IMG/VR virus record: IMGVR_UViG_2838247499_000001
Span: 1-64,000 of that record
Length of the DNA: 64,000 bases
Reading direction: 5' to 3' (one strand)
From: a virus
Lineage: Duplodnaviria; Caudoviricetes
In this document: one piece after another, positions 20,545 through 35,410 of the stretch
Numbering within the stretch: position 1 is the first letter of the stretch
Layout: every line of letters starts with the position of its first letter
Position numbers and translations under genes: made by a program
The notes under the pieces: generated by a model
What the model was told of the DNA's origin: nothing
What the model saw: the letters and a program-made list of their open reading frames with translations, nothing else
The model's database searches: none

Positions 20545-21012
20545 ATGCAGCGCTACCTCGGCACCAAGGTCGTCGAGGGTCAGCCCATGACCCGCGGGGA
20601 ATACAACTCCCTGCGGGGCTGGACGAACCCGTCCGACGAGAACCCCAACGACGCCGGCTACCTGGTCGGCTATCTCGGTGGGGGCAAGCCCAACCATTCG
20701 GACTTCCCGTACTACATCAGCTGGTCCCCGGCTGAAGTCTTCGAGAAGGCCTACCGGCCGACCCAGGGCATGAGCTTCGGCCAGGCCCTCGACGCCCTGA
20801 AGACTGGGCACCGGGTCGCACGTGCAGGCTGGAACGGCAAGGGTATGTGGCTCGACATGCAGCTTCAGGACGGCCGCTCCTACCCGGCCGGCGAGCTGGG
20901 GCTTCTGCCCCACCTGGCCTGGATCGGCATGAAGACGGCTGACAACAAGTTCGTCCCCTGGCTCGCCAGCCAGACGGACGTTCTCTCCGAAGACTGGACC
21001 ATCCTCCCCTGA
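20545..21012 (+). CDS. DUF2829-domain protein
   Basis: SWSP..VFE.AY, FG.AL..LK.G.RVAR.GWNGKGM, PWLASQTD.L..DW. Confidence 0.85.
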   Translation: MQRYLGTKVVEGQPMTRGEYNSLRGWTNPSDENPNDAGYLVGYLGGGKPNHSDFPYYISWSPAEVFEKAYRPTQGMSFGQALDALKTGHRVARAGWNGKGMWLDMQLQDGRSYPAGELGLLPHLAWIGMKTADNKFVPWLASQTDVLSEDWTILP

Positions 21013-24047: not shown

Positions 24048-24206
24048 ATGCCCTTCTTCCCCAAACCCCAACCAGTCGATCCCTTCGAACTGTTCATGGC
24101 CAAGCTCATTGGCGTGAAGTTCGAGCGTAGAGAAGCCAACACTGTCCTCGTTGGCTATCTCTACAAGGGCTGCATCTACGTCACCGAGCTCTACAGCGTC
24201 ACTTGA
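24048..24206 (+). CDS. small hypothetical protein (52 aa)
   Basis: MPFFPKPQPVDPFELFMAK...; A/C-rich leader like other genes here. Confidence 0.5.
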   Translation: MPFFPKPQPVDPFELFMAKLIGVKFERREANTVLVGYLYKGCIYVTELYSVT

Positions 24207-27200
24207 TGAGCGACATCGGCACCGACACCGTGGCCAGGCGATCCAGAGCGCCGGGGTACTGCAAGGCACCCCAGCTCCACGGGTTGTTGCCCAGGTGGTG
24301 CAGGAACGAACCATCCAGCACGTTGGGGCCGATGCTCATGTAGTGATCCAGGGCCATCAGGCCCAGCACTCGACCAGGGTTCTCACGCATCGTGCGAGTC
24401 AGAACTCGCTGGATGCGCAGGAAGTACTTGGTGAACATGAACAGACCCATGTTGTCCAGGTACTGCATGCCGCGGTGCATCGGGACGTCGTAGTTGATGA
24501 ACGTCTCGCTGGCGCGCTGCAGGGCCTGCTCCTTGGTCATCGGGTCCTTCTTGGTCACCAGGTGCTGGTACAGCGCATAGCGGGCCATGAAGTCCGACAG
24601 CCGGGTCATCCGGCTCATGGCCTGGTAGGTCTTGGTGTCGTGCGTCATGTAGACCTGCTTGGCCGCGGCCACCACGCCCGGGTTCAGGGCCTTGGTGAAG
24701 CGCTCGGTGCGACGAGCCCACTCGGTCTTGTACGAGTAGGGGTCGTTTTCCTGGGCGACGTCTTCCACGATCGTGGGCATCAGGCCGGCCTCCATCAGCT
24801 CCTTGACCGGGTTGCGCGCCAGCGCATCCTTCAGGCGGGCCACCTGGCGCTCGATGTCCGAACGGGTGCCATTGCCTGCCGGCAGGTAGCCAGTGTCCAG
24901 CATCTGCTGCAAACGCTGCAGCTCGTTGCTGTCGCGCTCGAAGGCCACGGCGCCGCGCATGGCCACCAGGTGATGACGCACGAAGTCGCGCAGAGGCACC
25001 CCGGACAGAGCCAGTTGGGTGAAGTTCGACAGCACGTTGTCGATCAGCACCACCCCCGACTTGACCACGATGATGTCCTTCGTCTCCTTGACGATCTCCT
25101 TCCAGGCCTCCTCACCGCGGGCCAGATACCAGCCCAGCTTCTTGGCGTAGTTGTCGGCCTCGCGGTCGTCCATGCCCTGGCTGCGCGCATACAGGTCGAA
25201 CCAGCCTCGAACGATGGCTTGCACGCCCTTGAGCGTGTCCTTGTCCTTGCGCAGGAACTCAGCAGCAGAAGCCGCCCGATAGCCGAACATGACGTCCAGC
25301 ATGTCGTTGTGGACGTACATGCCCTTGAAGCCCCAGACCCGGTTTACCTCCTGCTTGGTCTTCTCCGGCAGCAAGCGCCAGATCTCCTTGAGCTGGGGAT
25401 CCGTGCTGTCCACCCCGACCAGGAAGTAGCCCTTCTGGCGGTTGACGTCACGATCAGCGTCGAACTGCGCCTTCAATGCCTGCACGGCCTCGGAGTTCTG
25501 CGCCGGCGTGGTTTGCTTGTCGAACACCGAGCCGGCCAGGGTGCCGAGAACTGCATCGAAGTCGTTGTTGCGCTGCAGGATGTCGTCCTTGGTCTGCTCC
25601 TCCATCAGATGGCGCCAGTTCACCACCTTTCCGTGCTCGTTGTAGACGGGCGCCATGTGGTGGGTGCGATCGAGCTCGAGGTCCCGATGCGGGTCCAGGC
25701 GACGATCCAGCAGCGACAGCTTGCCGGCAGTCACCGCGGCCTGGCGCTGGGCATTGCGCCGGCCATCGTCGAACCCGGTGTGCAGGAAGCCGTTGTGCAG
25801 CTGCGAGCCCTTGGCCGCGGTGTCGGTCAGCGACATGATCCCGGAGTCCCAACGGGCACGGGCAGCACCGCGGCGCACGTAGATGCGCTGCTTCTGGCTC
25901 ACCGGGTCGTGCAGGTCGTCCTGCACCTTGGCTCCCTCGGAGAAACCCTGAGCCAGCAGATCCTTGCCCCGCTCCTCGCCGGCGACTTCGAAGGCGGTGT
26001 GCGGGTTGAAGATCTCGGGCGTGTAGCCGTGCTGCATCAGCACCGGGTTGCCCCCGAACAGGCGCTCCAGGGCGTCAGCCTCCAGCTTCTTCAGCGTGCG
26101 CAGCAGGAAGTCCACCCCGTTGCCGCCATCCTGGCGAGCCGTCTCGGCAGACAGCACCGCGGCCGCGCGGGTCTTGTCAGCCACATCGGTCGACTTCAGG
26201 GCGAACAGCGAAGCCAGCACCTTGATGCTGTCCTCGTGCTCCTCAGCCACTGCGCTGGCATGGGCCTCGTACCGGGTGTCGAGCATGCGCGCGATCACGT
26301 GGGCGTTGGGCATCAGGAAGCCCTTGACCTGGCCGGTGGCCTTGAAGTGCCCCAGGATGCGAGCCTGCTCGACGTACAGCCGGCGCAGCCGGGCTGGCAG
26401 TCGAGCCTCGAACTGGGCGATGGCCTGGTCGAGCGCCGGCTGGCTGGTCAGCAGCTGCTCCATCTCGTTGAAACCGAAGTGGTCCAGCAGGTTATGCAGG
26501 CCCGTCCGCATGAACACCCGCGTCACGCTGGCCTTGGCTTCCGAGCTCAGGTCCTTGCCCTCGTTGACGAACGACTCCAGGGCGAACTTGGCCGAGTTGC
26601 TGATCAGGCTCTTGCGCTGGGCTTCCCGGTGCTTGACCAGGCGCAGGGACTTCTCGGCCCACTCCTTCACGCCGGCGACTTCGCGCAGCAGCGACGACAG
26701 GATGCCGCCTCGCTCGTTCATCGTGCGATCGCGGAACTGCTGCAGCGCGTCATAGAACTGCTGCTGGCGGTGGCCGGCGACGGTGCGGACCACCGCGGCA
26801 CTGCCCTTGACGATGCCGCTCTTGCTCTTGCGGAAGAAGTCCGAGCCAGCGACCTGCTCGACCTTTTTCATGGTCGCCTCGCTCGCCTTGGTGACCGCGT
26901 TCTCCAGTGGCTCCAGGTAGTTCACCCGCGCCTTGCCGTCCTTGATGGCTTCGCGGTTCTTGGCTTCGATGTCCACCAGCTGGCCAACCAGGGTCTGCAG
27001 CTTCTCGTCCAGGTTCTGGCCGTCGTAGGTGTGCGTGGCCATCCGGGCGAAGAAAGCCAGGATGTTCTCGAACACGATCTGCACCTTGTCGGCGAAGGTC
27101 TTGCCCTCGCTGACCGTGCGCCGATCCTTGCTCGGCACCTGCAGCAGCTTGTTCACGCCCTGGTGAGCGAGCGCCAGCGCAGCGAACCGGGCGAGGTACT

Positions 27201-30200
27201 CGCTCTTGTCGCCGTTGTCGGCTTCCACCTTGAAGATGAAGTCGTAGTGCGCCGGCGAGGCGAAGTCCGAGGGCTTCAGCGTCTGCTGGGCCTCGGTGAA
27301 CAGGTCCGACAGCTCCTGGTAGGCCAGCTTGGTGTGGCCGGAGTTGTCCTTCAGCGCCGCTCGCACCGTGGCTTCCACCTGCTCGATGGCGAACGCTTCC
27401 TGGTCCGACACCGGCAGGTTGGCCAGGACCCGGCTGGCGAAGGGCGCCAGGCCGGTCTGCTGGGCCTTCAGCCAGGCTTCCCGGGGGGAAGTCGGGGCGT
27501 AGGGCTTCAGGGCCTCTGCGAACGCGCCAAACGGGCCGTGGAGCGCGTCGACGATGCCGGACAGGAGTTCGGACAGGTGCGCCTCGAATCGCGGCTCCAG
27601 GGGCCGATTCGCGTCGGCCAGGGCCTCATGGATCGCCTGGGTCGTGAACGCATCCACGGCAGCCATCGACCGGTTGATCGAGGCAGCCTCCGTCTGCTCC
27701 TGCGGATTCTGCAAGCCCTGGGTCTGAGCCACAGCCTGAACCAGGCCCGACACGTTGGCCACCAGGAGTGCGAGCCCCGTCTCCGCTTCGTGGAACAGCG
27801 GGTTGCCCACTGCCTTGCCCAGCAGGCCGGTCAGCGCCTTGATGAACTTCTGCAGCCCGTTGAGCAGGCGGTTGCCACCCGACTTCGACGGGGCATACAT
27901 GCTGGCCAGGATGTCACGCTGGAACGCTTCGTTGGTCATCCCCCAGGAGATGAACTCGTCCAGGTTCTCGGTGGCCGCGGCATAGCGGCCATCCTTGTCC
28001 ATCGCCTTGGCCTGCTCGCGCAAGGCCTCGAGCTCGTCGATGAGCTGCTTGGCAGCCGGGTCCGGCTGCTTGCTGGTGCGCTGCTCCCACAGGTAGCGAG
28101 CCAGGACACCGTGCAGCATCTCGTGCAGCACCGTCTCCGCGGTCAAGCCAGAGGCCTTGAAGGCCGGGCTCAGGAAGTTCACCTCGTGGCGACCCTGACC
28201 GGCCACGTACCAGCCACGCGACGGGGTCTGCGCCGGCGCGATCACCGCATCCACCGCGGTGTCAGGCTTGACCAGGCGGAACGCCAGGTCGTTGGGCAGG
28301 ACCCGGGCCACCAGGGCCAGTAGCTTCTGGTTGGCCGGCGACAGGCCGGCACCCTTCAGGTACGCCACCATCTCGGTGCCCGACTTGTCACCACCGTCCA
28401 GGAAGGCCACCAAGCCCGTGTCGCTGGCCACCGCCGACCGGCCCAGCTCACCGAACGGCGAGGTCTTCGGGGCAGGCACGGCAACAGGCGCAGCCTGGAT
28501 CGCCGGCGCCGGCTTGGCGAACACCGCCAGGTGCAGCAGCCCCAGGGCCTCCATGTGGGACGGGTCCATCATCTGCGGCACAGCGGCCAGCTTCTCGGCC
28601 GCGGCCTTGCGGTCAGCGTCGGTCACCTCGTAGCTGCCGCCGTCGAAGGCGTACTGGTCCACCACCGCCCACTGGCTCATGGCCTGCAGCTTGGTCGTGT
28701 CCGCCTGGCGGGCCAGGTCGAAGGCCTTGCCCATCGCGTCGGCCAGCACCTGCTCGGGAGACTGCTTCTTGGAAGCCAGCGCCTCGAACACCTGGCGCAA
28801 GTTGGCCACCGCGGCCGGGGTCAGCGTTCCGGCGTCCTGCATGGCGGCGATCCCGCTCACCACCCGAGCCAGCGCATCGTAGGCCGCGGTCATGGGCGAG
28901 TAGCCCAGCAGCGACTCCCAGGTGCTCTGGTTGAACGCCTGGGCGGTCTTGGCCAGCGTGCCGACTCCGTCACCCACGGCGTCGTGGATGTTCAGGATGT
29001 TGCGGCCCAGCTGGGTCAGGTGGGAGATCTTGCTGTCCAGCGAGTGCGTCGAGGCCGACACCGCCAGCACGCCGGGACCGGTCTGCTGCACGGCCTGGCC
29101 ACGGGCCGTCAGCTGCTTGGCGCCGTTGCCCAGGGGTTGGGCAAAGCCCACCGCCGTCTCGTAGGCAGGCGAGTCCACCGGGCCACGCTCGCGTCGAGCC
29201 AGCAGGATCCCGTGCGCCAGGTTGCCATCGTCCTGGCTCATGGCCGTGTGCATCACCGGCAGGATGCCGGCCAGCTTCTCTTTCAGCTGGGCTTCCTGCT
29301 CGGCCGACAGGTCGTGCAGCGGCACGCCGGCCTTGTTGCGCTCGATGCCCAGCTCGTCCATGAATTCACCGCGGGCCGCCTGGTACACCGCGTTGTAGAG
29401 CTCGTAGGCCAGGCTGGTCGTGGTCGTCAGCGCCTTGCGCTTCTCGATGAAGGGGGCAAACGCCTTCTCCACCACGCTCGCCGTGGCCTCACCCATCGTG
29501 TCACCGTAGGCCTTGCGCAGCGCCTTGAGCTGTCGATCCGACAGTACCCGGGCGTCCATGTACTTGGCGATCGGCTGGCCCACTTTCAGGGTCGGCGCAC
29601 CACCGTGCTGCAGCAGCGTGTTCAGGTTGGCGATGAAGTCGTCGACCCTCTCCTGGCTGGCTTGCTTGACCGAGAACTGCTCGAGCTGGGCGTAGACCCC
29701 CTCGATGAAGGTCTGGGCCATGCCGCGGCGGATGCTCTTGAAGCCAGAACCGAAGTTCAGCGGGTTCAGCGCACCCTTGACCAGGTCACGCCCGGCCTTC
29801 GTCACCACACCAGCGTCGTCGGCCACCCGGCCGGCCACGTTCCAGATCGCCGAGATCACGCCGGCAGGGACCTTGCCCTCGCCCAGCATGCCGCGCATAC
29901 GACGGTCGATGTCCTTGGCGGTGTGCTCGTAGATGTCCGCGTTGCCCGCGGTGCCACGCCAGATGTTGTACTGGCGGAACTCGCTGTCCTCGGTGAAGAA
30001 GCCGCCGCGCTCGAGCAGCGCCTGCAGGTCTTCCACCGTCTCGCCGGCGCCGTAGAGCACGTGGTTCAGCATCGTGCCGTTGGCTACGCCGTCCACCTCA
30101 CCCATCAGGTCGGTGGTGAATTCCTTGGCACCGGTGGCCAGCGCCTGCTGGTAGTGCGCCCAAGCGATCAGCGCCGCCAGGGTGTGCAGCTTCTCCTTGC

Positions 30201-33200
30201 CGGCCAGCACCGCATTGACGATCGCGCGCTGCTGCTTGGCGTCCAGCTCGGTGGCGCCGTACAGGGCTTGCTGCAGGGCCTGCACGCCGGCGACGAACAC
30301 CGGCTCCTGGAGCTGGGCTTCGACCGCGGCCACCGACTTCTGGCTGGCACCCTTCTCGGTCTTGATGCCCAGGCCCTCGGCCACGCGCAGCTTGAAACCA
30401 GTCAGCAAGGGACCGCCCTCGACCGGCACCGTGGTCTTCCAGTCCGGATGCACGGTCAGCCAGCGGTGGATCTTGCTGGTCTGCGGGTTCACGGCCGTCG
30501 TCTCGATGCCGACCCGCTGCTGCTTCCACATGTTGTACGTGAGGAAGAAGGGCTGCTCGACACCACCGTTCGGCACCAGGACCTCGCTCACGAAGTCCAT
30601 GAAGCTCTTGAACTCGCGGCGGTAGCCATCGTTCTTGGCTTCCTTGCCCTTGCGGTTCACGCCGTGCGTGTTCTCCGCGGTGACTTCCACCACACCGGCC
30701 ATCTCCAGGGCCATCTCCTCGGTGAGGGCGCTCAGCACCTTCATCGGGTCCTTGGCCACCACTCGACCGTTGTCGGTCTGGTTCTGCTTGATGACCTTGC
30801 GGATCAGGTCCGGCACACCCATGTCGGTGTCCGACTTCTGCTGCACCTGCTTGACGGGCTCGACGCTCGGCAGCTTGGCGGCCGACTCGATGCCGAACAG
30901 GCTGCCGATGATGTTCTGCGAACCCTTCAGGGTGTCGGCGATCTCCTTGGCCTGGCCGGTCAGCTGGCGCTGCCCGTCCCGGGCCAAGCGGAAGAAGTGG
31001 TGGGGCTGCTTGTTGGCCAGCGCCGGGGGGTTGTCCACACCCTCGTAGCGCAGGTCATGGATCAGCTGGGCGTCGATGTCCGTGCGGATCACGATGCCCT
31101 GGTCCTCCAGCAGCTTCAGCGCATGGGCACCCAGCGACACCCGCAGCTTGGCGATCATGTCCTGGGGAGCGTCCTTGCGCGCCTTCAGGCCCAGGGCGTC
31201 GAGCACCCGCGAGCCAAGGGAGTCCACCAGCATCGACTGGTAGCTGCCCACCTGGCCCAGCGTCTCACGCGCCAGCTGCGACACCACATCGTCTTCGCTG
31301 TGACCCAGGATGCTGTTGATGTCGGCATCCAGGTTCACATCCAGCCGGCCGGCCTGGTCACCGATCCAGGCGAACACCGCCGCGGTGATGCCGGTCTTGA
31401 CGTTCTCCTCGACGTCGCCGTCGACGATCAGGTAGCGGATCGGGTCCTCGAAGTTGAACGCCTCGTTGTGCGAGGGCTTCAGGTTCTTCTGGATCTCGCC
31501 GGCCCAGGCCTTGGCCTTGAGGGCGAACATGCGCAGCGCGCTCTGTTGCTCCTCGGTCAGGCCGTCCTTGTCCTTCAGGTACTCGCGCAGCTGGATGGCC
31601 TTGGCCGCCCACTTGCTCATGAAGTCCTTGACCGCCACCAGCGGACGGAGGGACCCGTCCTTGATGGATCCCTTCACCTGGGTGAAGAAGTCCCCGAACT
31701 TCTTGGTCCGGTGCGTCGCACCTTCGCCAGCGCTGTCGCGCGTGGCTCGGAGCTCACCCGACTCCACAGTCTGAGCTTGAGCTTCAGTCGACTGAGATTC
31801 AGCCTGCAGAGCACTCTGCTCAGAGTTCGTGACAGACTCCGCGAGATCAGCTTTGCTAACCTCGACTGGGGCTGCAGGCGCATCCTGCGCTGCAGAGAGG
31901 CTGGTATCCTTCGGATTAGACTGGTTTTGACCCTCAGCTCGACTGTCAACTGCAGTCGACTCAGGGGACTGAGACACAGTGTTCTCAGTCTCCACAGTAG
32001 AGCCGGAGGCTACTACAGCAGCCCCGGCCTCGGACTTCAGCCCAGCGGACTCCACCGCGTTCGAAGCTCCGGCAGCGGCAGGTCCAGCATCTTGGACTGC
32101 AGCACCGCCTGCTCCATCTTTTGCCGGCGCTCGTTGCGCTGCTTGACCTTGAGTGCCCGCTCCTGCAGCGGAACCTTGCGGTGCGTTCTGGACATTCGTC
32201 CCTCCAGTGGTGGTAGTGGTCTTCGGTTGAGAGAACTTCAGGTCGTAGCCAGCCTTGAGCTCGGCCAGCGCCTTGTTGATCGCCTCGGCTTCCCGGGGCA
32301 GCTGCGTCAGCCACTTGTCCGTGCTGATCGTCAGGCCGCCGTTCTGGGCCATCTGCTTGTCCGACAGGCGGGGGCCGTTGTTCACGACCCACTCGCCGGC
32401 CTTGGTGCGGACGATCTGGCCGCCCACATCCGCGTCTTCCGCGGCACGGGCCTTGGCCTGGTGGTCGGCGGCGAACTTGGCCAGCAGGGCGAGCACCCGG
32501 CCGGCTTCCTTCTGGTCTCCGGAAGCCAGGGCAGCAGCCACCCGCGTGCGGTACTGGTCGATGCCCTGGTAGCCCTTGCCGCCCACGTAGATCTCGGCCT
32601 CGACGCCACCCAGGGTCTTGGCGCGGTTCTCGGCCACCCGGGAATCGGCGAAGGCACGCAGGTAGTTGCGCTGCTCGTCCGTCAGGGCGTTGGTCGCGTT
32701 GTCGGCCAGGCTCAGGGCCTGCTGCGGATCCAGGCGGCCAGGGCTGGCCATGGACAGCGTGATGAGGGCATCGGCCGCATCCCGGGCTGCCTTGGTCGCC
32801 ACGGCATCGTCCGGCGTCACCGTCGCGGTGACCTTCTCGATGTGCGACTGCACCTCGGCGGCCGGGCTCGCCACGACGCCCAGCTGGTCATAGGCCGACT
32901 TCGCCTTGGCCAGCTTCTCGTCCATCCTGGCCACCCGGGCCTGCATCTCGGCCAGGACCTTGGCTTCGGGCTGGTTGTCCAGGCTCTCCTGCAGCCCTTG
33001 AATCAGGTCCAGCGTCGAGCTGTGCGCCGGCGTGCCCGGTTGCAGGATGGCCAGCTGTTGCTGGGCGCTCTGCAGCTGCTGCTTCTGGTCAGTCAGCACC
33101 TCGGGCGACACGGCATCCAGGACCTCCTGGGCCTTGTCGCGGCTGGCTTGCAGCTCGCTGACCACCTTCTGGGCCTTGGCCAGGTTGGCCTGCTTCTGCG

Positions 33201-34593
33201 CCGGCGTGGTGGTCTCCTGCTTGGCATGAGCCAGCAGTGCGATCACGGCGTCGTCCGGGGCATAGCCCTGCTTCTTCGGGTCGATCAGCGCGTCGACGTT
33301 GCCCGTCTGGGCAGCATCAGCCACCACCTTGGCCGCAGCTTGCTTCTCCTCCCGAACCTGGGCCTGCTCAGGCGTGGCGCCGGTGGCTTCAGCCACAAGG
33401 CGTCCGCCGCCAGACAGGCCAGCACCTGCAATGCCACCGATCGCCGCACCGGCGTAGATGTCCTTGGCCGAGGCCGGCTTGCCCGTGACCTCACCTTCCA
33501 TGTACGTCTGGAAGCCTTCGGTCGGCGCCTCGGTCAGCAGGCCTTCACCGGCTGCCTTGCCGGCGTTCTTGAGCGACTGCTTGAAGCCAGCAGTGACAGC
33601 GTCCTTGCCCTTGCCTGCGAAGGCGAGAGCGGCCGTGTCGCCTGCGTGCTCGGCGATGGCCAGGGACGCGGCTTGCAGCGCCATCTTCTGGCGCACATCC
33701 TCGGGTGGCAGCTCGCCGCCGTGCTGCGCCTGGTAGTTCTGGATGCCCTGGTTGTAGTTGTCCAGGGCATAGCCGACGTTCGAAGCACCCAGAGCCACCT
33801 TGCCCGCCTTGCCAGCCACACCACCCACCGCCAGCTGCGGCAGGTTCTGCACGACGTACTCGAGCGAAGCCTGCGGATTCCCCGCGGCGACAGCACCGGC
33901 GTTGTAGATCAGCTTGGCCAGGCCGGCCGTGACGTTGGCCACCCCACCTTCCTTGACCTGGCTCCATGCCGGGTCGAAGCCAGCGCCCAGCTCCTCGTTG
34001 AAGGCCGTCTGCTTGGACTGCAGCACCGTGTCCTTGTAATCGGTGGACTCGACGATGTTGCGGGCCGATTCCCGCTTGACGTTCATGTCCTTCCAGATCG
34101 ACAGCGGCGTCGGCGCGTTCGGGTTCTGATCGGTCATGGCCTGCGCACGGGCCTGCACCTGCGCGCGCATCTCCGGATCGGTGATACCGCCCGGGATGAC
34201 CACCGGAGGCGCAACCTTGCGGTTGATCTGTGCCATGTCGGCCGGCGACGCCTGGCCCTTGTGGAAGCGATCCAGTGCAGCCAGGTCCTGCTCGGTCAGG
34301 TTGGCCTGGTCGGCCGCGGCGATCGTGCCGGGAATCAGGCTGGCCAGCTGGCCGGCCAAAGTGCCCAGGCCCTGGTATGCGCTGGCGCCCAGGTTCACCG
34401 CCCGGCCGAGAATGTTGTCCTCGTTCAGGCCGAGTTTCCGGACCCAGGAATCCTGATCGTTCACCACCGGCGTTGCCGGGGTTTGCGGAGCCAGCTCGGC
34501 CTTTTTCTGTTCCGATGCCGCGGCGAGATTCAGCCGTTTCTGCTCAGCCTCCAGACGGGCATTGAGAAGGGCATCGAGATCGAATGGGGACAT
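24199..34593 (-). CDS. virion-encapsidated RNA polymerase (N4 gp50-like)
   Basis: ~3464 aa, no Cys noticed on reading, T7-family motifs DGVANG (A), R.3K.7FG (B), IHDA (C); start MSPFD. Confidence 0.96.
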   Translation of the reverse strand: MSPFDLDALLNARLEAEQKRLNLAAASEQKKAELAPQTPATPVVNDQDSWVRKLGLNEDNILGRAVNLGASAYQGLGTLAGQLASLIPGTIAAADQANLTEQDLAALDRFHKGQASPADMAQINRKVAPPVVIPGGITDPEMRAQVQARAQAMTDQNPNAPTPLSIWKDMNVKRESARNIVESTDYKDTVLQSKQTAFNEELGAGFDPAWSQVKEGGVANVTAGLAKLIYNAGAVAAGNPQASLEYVVQNLPQLAVGGVAGKAGKVALGASNVGYALDNYNQGIQNYQAQHGGELPPEDVRQKMALQAASLAIAEHAGDTAALAFAGKGKDAVTAGFKQSLKNAGKAAGEGLLTEAPTEGFQTYMEGEVTGKPASAKDIYAGAAIGGIAGAGLSGGGRLVAEATGATPEQAQVREEKQAAAKVVADAAQTGNVDALIDPKKQGYAPDDAVIALLAHAKQETTTPAQKQANLAKAQKVVSELQASRDKAQEVLDAVSPEVLTDQKQQLQSAQQQLAILQPGTPAHSSTLDLIQGLQESLDNQPEAKVLAEMQARVARMDEKLAKAKSAYDQLGVVASPAAEVQSHIEKVTATVTPDDAVATKAARDAADALITLSMASPGRLDPQQALSLADNATNALTDEQRNYLRAFADSRVAENRAKTLGGVEAEIYVGGKGYQGIDQYRTRVAAALASGDQKEAGRVLALLAKFAADHQAKARAAEDADVGGQIVRTKAGEWVVNNGPRLSDKQMAQNGGLTISTDKWLTQLPREAEAINKALAELKAGYDLKFSQPKTTTTTGGTNVQNAPQGSAAGAGTQGQAAQRAPAKDGAGGAAVQDAGPAAAGASNAVESAGLKSEAGAAVVASGSTVETENTVSQSPESTAVDSRAEGQNQSNPKDTSLSAAQDAPAAPVEVSKADLAESVTNSEQSALQAESQSTEAQAQTVESGELRATRDSAGEGATHRTKKFGDFFTQVKGSIKDGSLRPLVAVKDFMSKWAAKAIQLREYLKDKDGLTEEQQSALRMFALKAKAWAGEIQKNLKPSHNEAFNFEDPIRYLIVDGDVEENVKTGITAAVFAWIGDQAGRLDVNLDADINSILGHSEDDVVSQLARETLGQVGSYQSMLVDSLGSRVLDALGLKARKDAPQDMIAKLRVSLGAHALKLLEDQGIVIRTDIDAQLIHDLRYEGVDNPPALANKQPHHFFRLARDGQRQLTGQAKEIADTLKGSQNIIGSLFGIESAAKLPSVEPVKQVQQKSDTDMGVPDLIRKVIKQNQTDNGRVVAKDPMKVLSALTEEMALEMAGVVEVTAENTHGVNRKGKEAKNDGYRREFKSFMDFVSEVLVPNGGVEQPFFLTYNMWKQQRVGIETTAVNPQTSKIHRWLTVHPDWKTTVPVEGGPLLTGFKLRVAEGLGIKTEKGASQKSVAAVEAQLQEPVFVAGVQALQQALYGATELDAKQQRAIVNAVLAGKEKLHTLAALIAWAHYQQALATGAKEFTTDLMGEVDGVANGTMLNHVLYGAGETVEDLQALLERGGFFTEDSEFRQYNIWRGTAGNADIYEHTAKDIDRRMRGMLGEGKVPAGVISAIWNVAGRVADDAGVVTKAGRDLVKGALNPLNFGSGFKSIRRGMAQTFIEGVYAQLEQFSVKQASQERVDDFIANLNTLLQHGGAPTLKVGQPIAKYMDARVLSDRQLKALRKAYGDTMGEATASVVEKAFAPFIEKRKALTTTTSLAYELYNAVYQAARGEFMDELGIERNKAGVPLHDLSAEQEAQLKEKLAGILPVMHTAMSQDDGNLAHGILLARRERGPVDSPAYETAVGFAQPLGNGAKQLTARGQAVQQTGPGVLAVSASTHSLDSKISHLTQLGRNILNIHDAVGDGVGTLAKTAQAFNQSTWESLLGYSPMTAAYDALARVVSGIAAMQDAGTLTPAAVANLRQVFEALASKKQSPEQVLADAMGKAFDLARQADTTKLQAMSQWAVVDQYAFDGGSYEVTDADRKAAAEKLAAVPQMMDPSHMEALGLLHLAVFAKPAPAIQAAPVAVPAPKTSPFGELGRSAVASDTGLVAFLDGGDKSGTEMVAYLKGAGLSPANQKLLALVARVLPNDLAFRLVKPDTAVDAVIAPAQTPSRGWYVAGQGRHEVNFLSPAFKASGLTAETVLHEMLHGVLARYLWEQRTSKQPDPAAKQLIDELEALREQAKAMDKDGRYAAATENLDEFISWGMTNEAFQRDILASMYAPSKSGGNRLLNGLQKFIKALTGLLGKAVGNPLFHEAETGLALLVANVSGLVQAVAQTQGLQNPQEQTEAASINRSMAAVDAFTTQAIHEALADANRPLEPRFEAHLSELLSGIVDALHGPFGAFAEALKPYAPTSPREAWLKAQQTGLAPFASRVLANLPVSDQEAFAIEQVEATVRAALKDNSGHTKLAYQELSDLFTEAQQTLKPSDFASPAHYDFIFKVEADNGDKSEYLARFAALALAHQGVNKLLQVPSKDRRTVSEGKTFADKVQIVFENILAFFARMATHTYDGQNLDEKLQTLVGQLVDIEAKNREAIKDGKARVNYLEPLENAVTKASEATMKKVEQVAGSDFFRKSKSGIVKGSAAVVRTVAGHRQQQFYDALQQFRDRTMNERGGILSSLLREVAGVKEWAEKSLRLVKHREAQRKSLISNSAKFALESFVNEGKDLSSEAKASVTRVFMRTGLHNLLDHFGFNEMEQLLTSQPALDQAIAQFEARLPARLRRLYVEQARILGHFKATGQVKGFLMPNAHVIARMLDTRYEAHASAVAEEHEDSIKVLASLFALKSTDVADKTRAAAVLSAETARQDGGNGVDFLLRTLKKLEADALERLFGGNPVLMQHGYTPEIFNPHTAFEVAGEERGKDLLAQGFSEGAKVQDDLHDPVSQKQRIYVRRGAARARWDSGIMSLTDTAAKGSQLHNGFLHTGFDDGRRNAQRQAAVTAGKLSLLDRRLDPHRDLELDRTHHMAPVYNEHGKVVNWRHLMEEQTKDDILQRNNDFDAVLGTLAGSVFDKQTTPAQNSEAVQALKAQFDADRDVNRQKGYFLVGVDSTDPQLKEIWRLLPEKTKQEVNRVWGFKGMYVHNDMLDVMFGYRAASAAEFLRKDKDTLKGVQAIVRGWFDLYARSQGMDDREADNYAKKLGWYLARGEEAWKEIVKETKDIIVVKSGVVLIDNVLSNFTQLALSGVPLRDFVRHHLVAMRGAVAFERDSNELQRLQQMLDTGYLPAGNGTRSDIERQVARLKDALARNPVKELMEAGLMPTIVEDVAQENDPYSYKTEWARRTERFTKALNPGVVAAAKQVYMTHDTKTYQAMSRMTRLSDFMARYALYQHLVTKKDPMTKEQALQRASETFINYDVPMHRGMQYLDNMGLFMFTKYFLRIQRVLTRTMRENPGRVLGLMALDHYMSIGPNVLDGSFLHHLGNNPWSWGALQYPGALDRLATVSVPMSLIK
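32037..32195 (-). CDS. candidate overprinted 52-aa basic protein within vRNAP (+1 frame)
   Basis: GGAGG SD 5 nt before ATG; 45/52 codons end in G/C while vRNAP-frame codons here are atypically A/T-ending. Confidence 0.55.
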   Translation of the reverse strand: MSRTHRKVPLQERALKVKQRNERRQKMEQAVLQSKMLDLPLPELRTRWSPLG

Positions 34594-34654
34594 AGGTATT
34601 CCGGAGGGCTCGGGTAATTGGGGACAGAGTGTACCCAATACCCGCCCCGGAATA

Positions 34655-35410
34655 TCAGCGCCCGTACTCTTGCATTCTCCGGAAACTCTCCGGATTCACC
34701 GGTTTCGGGTCTGCCCACAAACCCCTCTTGGCGGCCCGCGCTTCATTTTCCGCAGCCACCAGGTCGGGGTTGTTCACATACCGGCGATACAGCCAGGCCA
34801 TGCCGTCCTTGATCATCGCCTTGTCGATGTTGGCGCCGGAGATCTCGATCTGGCACAGCGACCGGTCGTAGTTCTTGCCCGCCACGGCCGGCCGGGAGAT
34901 CTTCAGGGTGACCTCCTTGTTGAGCACCATCTCCTCCAGCCGGCGCTTGCTCTCCTCCCCGAACGGCTGGCCGGCCTTGCCCACCTTGGAGTGGGCCACT
35001 TCCGGCGCGTCGATCGAGTCGATGCGGCAGTTCACCGTGGAGCCGTCGCCCCGCTTGGCGCTCAGGCTGTCGCCGTCGCCCACGTAGGTGATGACGGCCT
35101 TCTCCCCACCGGCGCTGGAGGGCTTGCCCTGCACCGCGGTCACCGGCTGCTGCCACTGCACATCCTTCGGGATTGCCACAGGCTTGCTGGCTTCCGTGGT
35201 CGTGCCGCTGCCCACGTTCAGTGCCACGTGATCGGTCGCCGGCTTGGCCTGGGCAGAGCTCGGGCTCGAACCAGGAACAGCAGCAGGCTTGGGCGCCTCG
35301 AAGGCACCCAGCGACTTGGCTGGTTGCGGCGACTTGCCCAGCCCGTCCATCGGCAGTGACCCCGCCCCACCAGCTGCCGGAGCAGCTGGCGTGGACGTCG
35401 GGGAGGTCAC
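34655..35410 (-). CDS. staphylococcal nuclease (thermonuclease) domain, probably a frameshift extension of the upstream protein
   Basis: DGDS, RIDSIDAPE, GMAW, ARAAKRGLW; ~90-aa P/A/S linker; GTG start without SD. Confidence 0.85.
   Translation of the reverse strand: MTSPTSTPAAPAAGGAGSLPMDGLGKSPQPAKSLGAFEAPKPAAVPGSSPSSAQAKPATDHVALNVGSGTTTEASKPVAIPKDVQWQQPVTAVQGKPSSAGGEKAVITYVGDGDSLSAKRGDGSTVNCRIDSIDAPEVAHSKVGKAGQPFGEESKRRLEEMVLNKEVTLKISRPAVAGKNYDRSLCQIEISGANIDKAMIKDGMAWLYRRYVNNPDLVAAENEARAAKRGLWADPKPVNPESFRRMQEYGR

Follow-up and report, generated by a model that had tools for sequence, protein, structure and literature searches.

The window analysed here, meaning the whole stretch of 64,000 nucleotides at positions 1 to 64,000 of the IMG/VR virus record IMGVR_UViG_2838247499_000001 (Duplodnaviria; Caudoviricetes), carries on its minus strand the giant gene of an N4-type virion RNA polymerase (vRNAP). 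Nested within this gene, in the +1 frame, lies an open reading frame (ORF) of 52 codons that is, with a probability that we put at about 0.8, a real and unannotated overprinted microprotein gene. The case for a real gene rests on comparison with relatives and not on the window sequence alone: across vRNAPs that are 25-50% identical, the ATG, a Shine-Dalgarno (SD)-like GGAG, the four first residues and a length of about 50-60 codons have all been kept, as have the last five residues in a subset of members. A preliminary description of this DNA, made from its letters only, had proposed a real small basic gene with its own SD-ATG in the +1 frame, and this core claim is supported both by the occurrence of the ORF in 24 of 57 relatives and by the substitution patterns among them.

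The elements on which the argument turns are the following (positions are those of the window).

24199..34638, minus strand: giant vRNAP ORF of 3,479 codons, in which the ATG at 34593 is the likely start and gives the 3,464-residue form on record

31669..32226, minus strand: linker of vRNAP (codons 805-990), with the N-terminal domain on one side and the polymerase domain on the other, low-complexity and hypervariable, delimited by the flanking anchors, the alignment and the profile of G+C at third codon positions (GC3)

32037..32195, minus strand: the overprinted ORF, with 52 sense codons plus TGA (32039-32037), ATG at 32195-32193, +1 frame relative to vRNAP, isoelectric point (pI) 11.6 and net charge +8

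32205-32201, minus strand: SD-like GGAGG, separated from the ATG by the 5-nt spacer GACGA (32200-32196) and read in the vRNAP frame as a rare GGA glycine codon followed by G

32175..32195, minus strand: N-terminal motif Met-Ser-Arg-Thr, followed by His/Tyr/Asn, Arg/His and Lys/Asn, kept among family members

32040..32054, minus strand: C-terminal Trp-Ser-Pro-Leu-Gly abutting the stop, a copy of the [WY][KS]x[LQMVA][GE]-stop motif that is common to some distant members

The start of the ORF is at offset 2443 of the vRNAP ORF, which places it in the +1 frame, and it spans vRNAP codons 814-867, taking up the first third of the linker that separates two conserved blocks. The coordinates and translation put forward in the preliminary description (GGAGG, 5 nt, ATG at 32195, a 52-residue product in the +1 frame) were all reproduced. 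By position, this linker matches linker 1 of N4 gp50, which comprises about 100 flexible, unresolved residues (about 907/919-1007) according to the available excerpts of the two papers with which it was compared (PMC13492108, PMC13434306).

Relatives of the window had to be sought at the protein level, with profiles. A blastn search of the window against 50,697 phage records returned no close relative, a single-protein scan of IMG/VR gave 15 pattern matches of which 0 were confirmed as close relatives, and the nearest protein relative, the best of 29 protein matches, is 41% identical in the region of the ORF. Profile-based scans yielded 71 IMG/VR loci, 28 metagenome loci and one locus in a bacterial genome, and the vRNAPs compared are 25-50% identical. 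At each locus the linker was located by two small hidden Markov models (HMMs) of the flanking conserved blocks. Both anchors were found in 57 IMG/VR relatives, and a later set consisted of 72 distinct loci, the window included.

In addition to the window, 24 of these 57 relatives have a +1 ORF that starts with M[SA][RK][ST] at 3-12 codons past the left anchor; the check proposed in the preliminary description, a search for SD-ATG +1 ORFs in the same linker of related vRNAPs, has therefore a positive outcome. The same-site ORFs, with their MSRT-type starts, are 48-62 codons long in 24 of 24 cases. The standard deviation of their length is 3.7. Shuffling the codons of the linker downstream raises it to 37.6, and 2.5 of the 24 would then be expected to fall within 48-62 residues. 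A test of position that makes no use of the motif points in the same direction: 29 of the 72 loci carry a +1 ATG ORF of at least 40 residues that starts at this place, within an interval of 20 codons. Given how densely ORFs of this kind occur in the same genes, 3.9 loci would be expected, and the number 29 was reached in 0 of 200,000 simulations. Moreover, an HMM of the family, with which 32,233 six-frame segments from all loci were searched, produced 35 matches at E<0.01, every one of them in the +1 frame and at this site; the matches on which the model had not been trained are mostly duplicates of trained ones, the new ones being L079 and L085. The divergent copies L079, L081 and L032 have a C-terminal W-K-P-L/Q-G in common with the window, and the [WY][KS]x[LQMVA][GE]-stop motif is found in 9 of 32 peptides, against 12 of the 32,233 background segments. 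A tblastn search of the phage records with three family peptides (those of the window, L029 and L015) gave chance-level matches or none.

Other ORFs occur at the same site. In L039 and L076, which are near the window, the same-site +1 ORFs have the N-terminus M-x-x-KPLKPSKQKRKD, and in another clade (L034, L066, L067, L083 and L070) they begin with M-R-R-T/S-P-H-V. Both types may be diverged homologues of the family or independent overprints.

The start signal is conserved together with the ORF. An ATG is present in 23 of 23 distinct sequences, which is partly so by construction, and an SD-like core lies at -16..-4 in 21 of the 24 members, compared with 8.4% of 13-nt windows, the GGAG being placed 6-8 nt upstream of the ATG. 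At the glycine codons that form this core the rare GGA is used in 18 of 21 cases, where 2.4 would be expected. The vRNAP codon that provides the AT of the ATG is AAT, GAT or CAT, with its first base free and its third base fixed, in such a way that the Asn, Asp or His at the start site is always T-ending; T-ending Asn is rare in this gene (8% of Asn codons).

Comparison among the relatives indicates that the +1 frame, and not the vRNAP frame, is under purifying selection over this stretch. Ser2 of the small ORF is kept in 22 of 23 distinct sequences through TCC, TCA, TCT and AGC codons, and Arg3 in 21 of 23 through AGA, CGA, AGG, CGG and CGC, switches between codon families that leave the vRNAP residue over Arg3 to vary (Q in 10, K in 6, S in 3, P in 2 and T in 2). 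The vRNAP valine at the motif is always encoded by GTC. Over the first 24 nt, conservation is highest at the third position of the vRNAP codons (0.84) and lowest at the first (0.68). A control, the conserved R-P-L motif, shows the opposite, with 0.62 at the third position and 0.80 at the first. In moderately diverged pairs, changes counted by ORF position 1/2/3 amount to 9/16/24 (L015-L017), 6/17/21 (L010-L011), 17/11/23 (L018-L024) and 14/12/21 (L003-L030), whereas in the same pairs the flanks and the rest of the linker exhibit the ordinary excess at vRNAP position 3. Taken together, 13 pairs under 40% divergence give 156/159/235 changes by ORF position. Of 276 pairs, 196 have the +1 translation better conserved than that of vRNAP, 57 have it less well conserved and 23 are ties, in an alignment that was made in the +1 frame and favours that frame; pairs that were aligned separately agree in direction with this comparison. 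Reads of two sequencing runs, the probable source and a soil metagenome that contains half of the sampled words, show 18 variant sites in the vRNAP gene and 0 inside the ORF, a count that says nothing about selection. Among runs recorded as RNA, none contains the stretch, and RNA reads would in any case fail to tell the two frames apart.

The edges of the conserved segment are sharp in some pairs. Between L003 and L029, identity is 90-100% over the stretch from -60 to +150 relative to the ATG, compared with 40-83% further upstream (mostly 57-73%) and 10-47% just past the stop, and L029 and L035 are nearly identical up to the ORF stop and unrelated directly beyond it. The small ORF that L029 and L035 share with L003 differs at 8 of 162 nt, while divergence in the flanks is about 42%. 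This pattern looks like mosaic exchange with breakpoints at the edges of the ORF. In the vRNAP tree, L029 and L035 group apart from L003 and L030, despite the near-identical small ORF that they share with L003. According to a quick maximum-likelihood tree of the flanking vRNAP blocks, the carriers (29 of 72 rows) belong to several deep clades, and at least four gains or losses are forced by its well-supported branches.

Several points weigh against a real gene, besides the frame in which the 276 pairs were aligned. Family members were picked by the M[SA][RK][ST] motif, and the ATG and part of the N-terminal conservation follow by construction; the SD-like core, the ORF length, the switches between codon families and the surplus of changes at the third ORF position are independent of how the members were picked. 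The loci are related by descent, so that counts and P-values overstate their independence, and both the length range of 48-62 and the C-terminal motif were defined post hoc. Conservation beyond the termini is weak, with a mean identity of only 28% in the +1 frame versus 23% in the vRNAP frame. The distribution is patchy as well: among the 72 loci, 30 are without a +1 ORF at the site and 13 have one that the family profile does not recognise. N4 itself has no equivalent ORF, just a 32-codon +1 ORF late in the linker, and neither an HMM match (E<=10) nor a same-site ORF was found in Pectobacterium CB1, Acinetobacter Presley, Klebsiella P184, Vibrio VBP32, Vibrio JA-1, Pseudoalteromonas pYD6-A or Escherichia EK8, seven cultured phages in which no nested coding sequence is annotated. 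Litunavirus-type loci lack an MSRT-type ORF; four of them (L043, L047, L050 and L056) have an unrelated +1 ATG ORF of 38-39 codons at the site. Because many lineages do without it, the small ORF would be non-essential to the N4-type life cycle in general.

The predicted product has a consistent composition and charge. The 24 family peptides have a pI of 8.1-12.0, with a net charge of +3 to +10 in the N-terminal half and a neutral or acidic C-terminal half; they are rich in leucine (13%), arginine (13%), proline (10%), lysine (10%) and glutamine (9%), and cysteine occurs in 0 of 24. AlphaFold2, supplied with the family alignment, models the window copy as a single helix over residues 10-37 (mean predicted local distance difference test score 76, core 94). 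Over this helix stretch, just 4 of the 24 members are free of proline and 12 have at least three. A basic helical protein had been anticipated for the window: the basic character holds for the family, but the helix holds for the window copy alone and is not a family trait, given the members with at least three prolines. The predicted family product is basic and proline-rich and probably largely disordered, with conserved ends.

Searches of protein families and collections added little to this picture. The window peptide matched 0 families in Pfam-A and PHROGs v4, and the best single-member E values among the 24 members were 0.03 (Pfam) and 0.13 (PHROGs), none of them significant; a search of the ESM Atlas for look-alikes gave no lead. 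A word-indexed search of 5.8 billion proteins returned one match, identical to the L026 peptide, and a HMMER pass over 1.84 billion predicted-protein representatives returned five, all of 51-56 residues and all starting with MSRT. Gene callers almost never predict the small ORF.

Three alternatives to a nested gene have to be weighed. The one that survives best, and is nevertheless very improbable, is that some other feature in the same bases is selected, be it a vRNAP-frame motif G-x-x-N-V-x-N-V-S-Q or a DNA or RNA signal, the ORF being its by-product. Such a motif is recognisable in the vRNAP frame (G in 20 of 23, V in 21 of 23 and N/D in 21 of 23 sequences), and in the clade with MRRTPHVQ-type starts conservation is about equal in the vRNAP frame (EEDTARP) and the +1 frame. 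A selected vRNAP motif is difficult to reconcile, however, with third vRNAP positions that are the most conserved and first positions that are the least, with a valine that is always GTC, with a start-site Asn, Asp or His that is always T-ending even where such codons are rare, and with five different amino acids over Arg3. A short motif, moreover, would neither hold the length of the ORF constant nor make conservation end at the ORF stop. As for a nucleic acid signal, RNAalifold applied around the start in 17 members found 0 conserved pairs, and no promoter- or terminator-like site is present within 31800-32800.

A second alternative is that the ORF is a product of chance, untranslated and unselected, with a +1 frame that is open by virtue of linker composition, +1 ATGs being common where G-starting codons follow AAT or GAT. 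Judged by the window alone, the ORF is within chance expectation, and one sequence is insufficient to decide. The vRNAP gene contains 52 ORFs in the +1 frame, 7 of which reach at least 52 residues (3 of 31 when only ATG starts are counted). A +1 ATG ORF of at least 52 residues appeared in 67% of 5000 trials in which the codon order of the linker was shuffled and in 56% of trials in which its synonymous codons were permuted, so that such an ORF emerges from 56-67% of shuffles that keep the composition; it appeared in 16% of trials when synonymous codons were redrawn from gene-wide usage. An open +1 frame is expected here because the linker is poor in hydrophobic residues and hence in T-centred codons, which leaves few +1 stops, and rich in G-starting codons. 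An SD-like sequence ahead of an ATG is not exceptional either, since GGAG-N5..9-ATG is found 58 times in the window. The same linker holds a second +1 ORF (31674-31949, minus strand; 69 codons from an ATG at 31883, or 91 from a TTG) that has no counterpart in relatives and no HMM signal and is probably due to chance. In addition, a 2,028-codon ORF runs antisense to vRNAP at 28531-34617 on the plus strand, the usual artefact of high third-position G+C, which illustrates how cheap long ORFs are at 65% G+C and serves as a warning against arguments from ORF length in this genome.

Codon usage is equivocal in the same manner. A recount confirmed that 45 of the 52 sense codons of the small ORF end in G or C, and the proposed switch of vRNAP codon usage over the ORF was borne out, with a GC3 of 0.42 against 0.89 in the rest of the gene (GC1/2/3 of 0.85/0.68/0.42 in the vRNAP frame over the ORF; GC3 of 0.87 in the ORF frame). 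When 52-codon windows were scored with the codon table of the phage itself, the +1 frame outscored the vRNAP frame in 37 of 3426; 36 of these form one block at codons 797-832 and the remaining one is at 795, and they overlap the small ORF. This signal is suggestive only. In 71 of 72 related loci, ORF-less ones included, GC3 is lower in the linker than elsewhere in the gene, and the mean deficit is 0.13 even in loci without the small ORF; the codon-usage signal is confounded, because low GC3 is general in the linker with or without the ORF. In a few loci checked by hand, the overall G+C of the linker is near the gene mean, and low GC3 is a general property of the disordered linker. The preliminary description was right, then, about the presence of the ORF and of the codon switch, but the length and GC3 that it took as evidence are largely explained by linker composition. 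What chance fails to explain is the fixed start site, the MSRT, the SD-like core in 21 of 24 members, a standard deviation of length of 3.7 where shuffling gives 37.6, the switching between codon families and the concentration of changes at ORF position 3. The comparative data argue strongly against a chance origin, which on their account is strongly disfavoured.

According to the third alternative, programmed +1 frameshifting within vRNAP would yield, in place of a free microprotein, a shortened protein in which the N-terminal domain is followed by some 52 residues of basic tail. The ORF sits exactly at the domain boundary, the rare vRNAP-frame codons over it could slow ribosomes, and a truncated product of this type is conceivable, since the N-terminal domain of N4 inserts in membranes according to an excerpt of PMC13434306. 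An invariant ATG and an SD-like core at the right distance, on the other hand, are unneeded for frameshifting, and the +1 frame of L006, L007 and L021 has a stop one codon ahead of the ATG, that of the window 14 codons ahead of it. Since the +1 frame is closed just upstream of the ATG, almost no room is left for a shift site, and entry by frameshifting has only a slight chance of being correct.

If the ORF is a nested gene, as we favour, its internal SD-AUG would serve ribosomes as an independent initiation site on the vRNAP mRNA, a message that N4 produces late. The product would be a basic, cysteine-free and largely disordered microprotein rich in Pro, Arg, Lys, Leu and Gln. The linker would tolerate overprinting because its own sequence is nearly free to vary. 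As to function, the preliminary description suggested that the protein is perhaps an inhibitor or a packaging chaperone. It is a tentative guess that the protein acts through its conserved termini and its basic N-terminal half by binding nucleic acid or vRNAP, a mode of action like that of nested phage genes whose products cooperate with the protein encoded around them. A more specific and rather doubtful proposal, made by analogy with Rz1 as the partner of Rz, is that the microprotein is a dedicated partner of the injected vRNAP, produced from the same late message and binding either the polymerase or the accompanying DNA. Such a partner might keep vRNAP silent or unfolded for packaging, or might influence post-injection events in integrase-carrying phages, and the first 55 or so codons of the linker would then evolve as a passenger of the hidden gene, not vice versa.

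The enclosing gene has the properties of an N4-type vRNAP, namely a giant ORF of about 3,500 residues, homology along its length and an N4-like gene set around it. Schitoviridae have vRNAP as their hallmark gene, and its structure has been studied in detail. By tblastn, the window vRNAP shares 33-36% identity with virion RNA polymerases annotated in Pseudomonas phages; its own match to PF21867 is weak (E 8.5e-4, below the cut-off), and its relatives carry PF21624/PF21867 on record. The window has a G+C of about 65% and covers most of the record, which is 74,119 bp long and classed as a provirus. It encodes an N4 gp49-family protein, an SU10-type portal with its adaptor and a T7-type RNA_pol fragment, as well as Thy1, RNR, dUTPase, lysozyme and holin, the last two at 2260-2950, away from vRNAP. 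A staphylococcal-nuclease-domain protein (34655-35410, minus strand, E 1e-20) is encoded directly upstream of the vRNAP gene, and a protein with a Tad2-like (Thoeris anti-defence 2) domain at 20545-21012 on the plus strand (E 3e-24).

Some carriers of the small ORF appear to be temperate. The full record of the window has a tyrosine-integrase match at 73332-73847, outside the 64-kb window, and a 914-kb contig of Xenophilus sp. Marseille-Q4582 includes a carrier as a prophage (L101/L103). The portal of this prophage is 60% identical and is found at 95.6 kb of the contig, its vRNAP at 78.8-85.7 kb, and there are integrase matches at 75.1 and 118 kb. In the probable source run, the read depth of the 75,149-bp phage contig is 358, compared with 373-392 for other contigs. 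Lysogenic N4-like viruses are already known, as an excerpt of PMC10654107 attests. Among near-complete records, integrase-like matches at E<=0.001 are present in 5 of 9 ORF-bearing records versus 2 of 16 others, and matches above the Pfam cut-off in 2 of 9 versus 2 of 16. That the ORF travels with a temperate branch is a weak hint from these counts, confounded by clade.

If the reading of a nested gene is true, this would be among the better-supported fully nested out-of-frame genes in a large dsDNA phage, a case in which overprinting exploits a disordered linker, and it would add an extra player to the much-studied system of packaging, ejection and early transcription, in a branch of the family that is large, mostly uncultured and in part temperate. 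It would also illustrate that arguments from the ORF and GC3 of a single genome are weak in high-GC phages, where a cheap comparative test settles the matter. The available excerpts of the N4 gp50 literature (PMC13492108, PMC13434306) mention no nested gene, and full-text searches and excerpts of further papers on vRNAP and N4-like phages, supplements aside, likewise turned up no gene nested in vRNAP; in N4-like phage papers, the text matches to 'overlapping genes' that came up are citations of the paper on host nfrA/nfrB. The small ORF is positioned in a linker equivalent to linker 1 of N4 gp50, N4 itself being without an equivalent ORF. With arginine-rich-motif peptides, such as the N-terminus of lambda N, the family has in common a short and very basic N-terminal segment, along with the helix predicted in the window copy; unlike them, it has no Pfam or PHROG match, and half of its members have at least three prolines in the helix stretch, so that the likeness is a resemblance only.

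The arrangement itself, a fully nested out-of-frame gene, is known, and the small ORF is a new example of it. The lambda gene Rz1 is nested in the +1 frame of the lysis gene Rz and encodes a lipoprotein that is secreted, having both a signal peptide and the cysteine of a lipobox. Like Rz1, the ORF described here lies on the same strand as its host gene, has about 50-60 codons, is fully nested out of frame with a start signal of its own, encodes a proline-rich product and belongs to a tailed dsDNA phage, but unlike Rz1 its family has 0 cysteines in 24 members, a strongly basic N-terminus and vRNAP as host gene. An embedded o-spanin similar to Rz1 was accordingly considered and rejected, given the lack of cysteine in 24 members, the charged N-terminus, the identity of the host gene and the location of the lysis genes elsewhere. 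Other overprinted phage genes include E in D, B in A, and K in phiX174, and the nested genes 4.1/4.2 and 19.2/19.3 of T7. As in these overprints, a new frame has arisen inside an older gene, its product is short, of odd composition and probably disordered, and across the overlap it is the older frame that is under less constraint. Unlike in phiX174 and T7, the host gene is 10.4 kb long in a 74-kb dsDNA phage that is not short of coding space, and the overlap is confined to a disordered linker.

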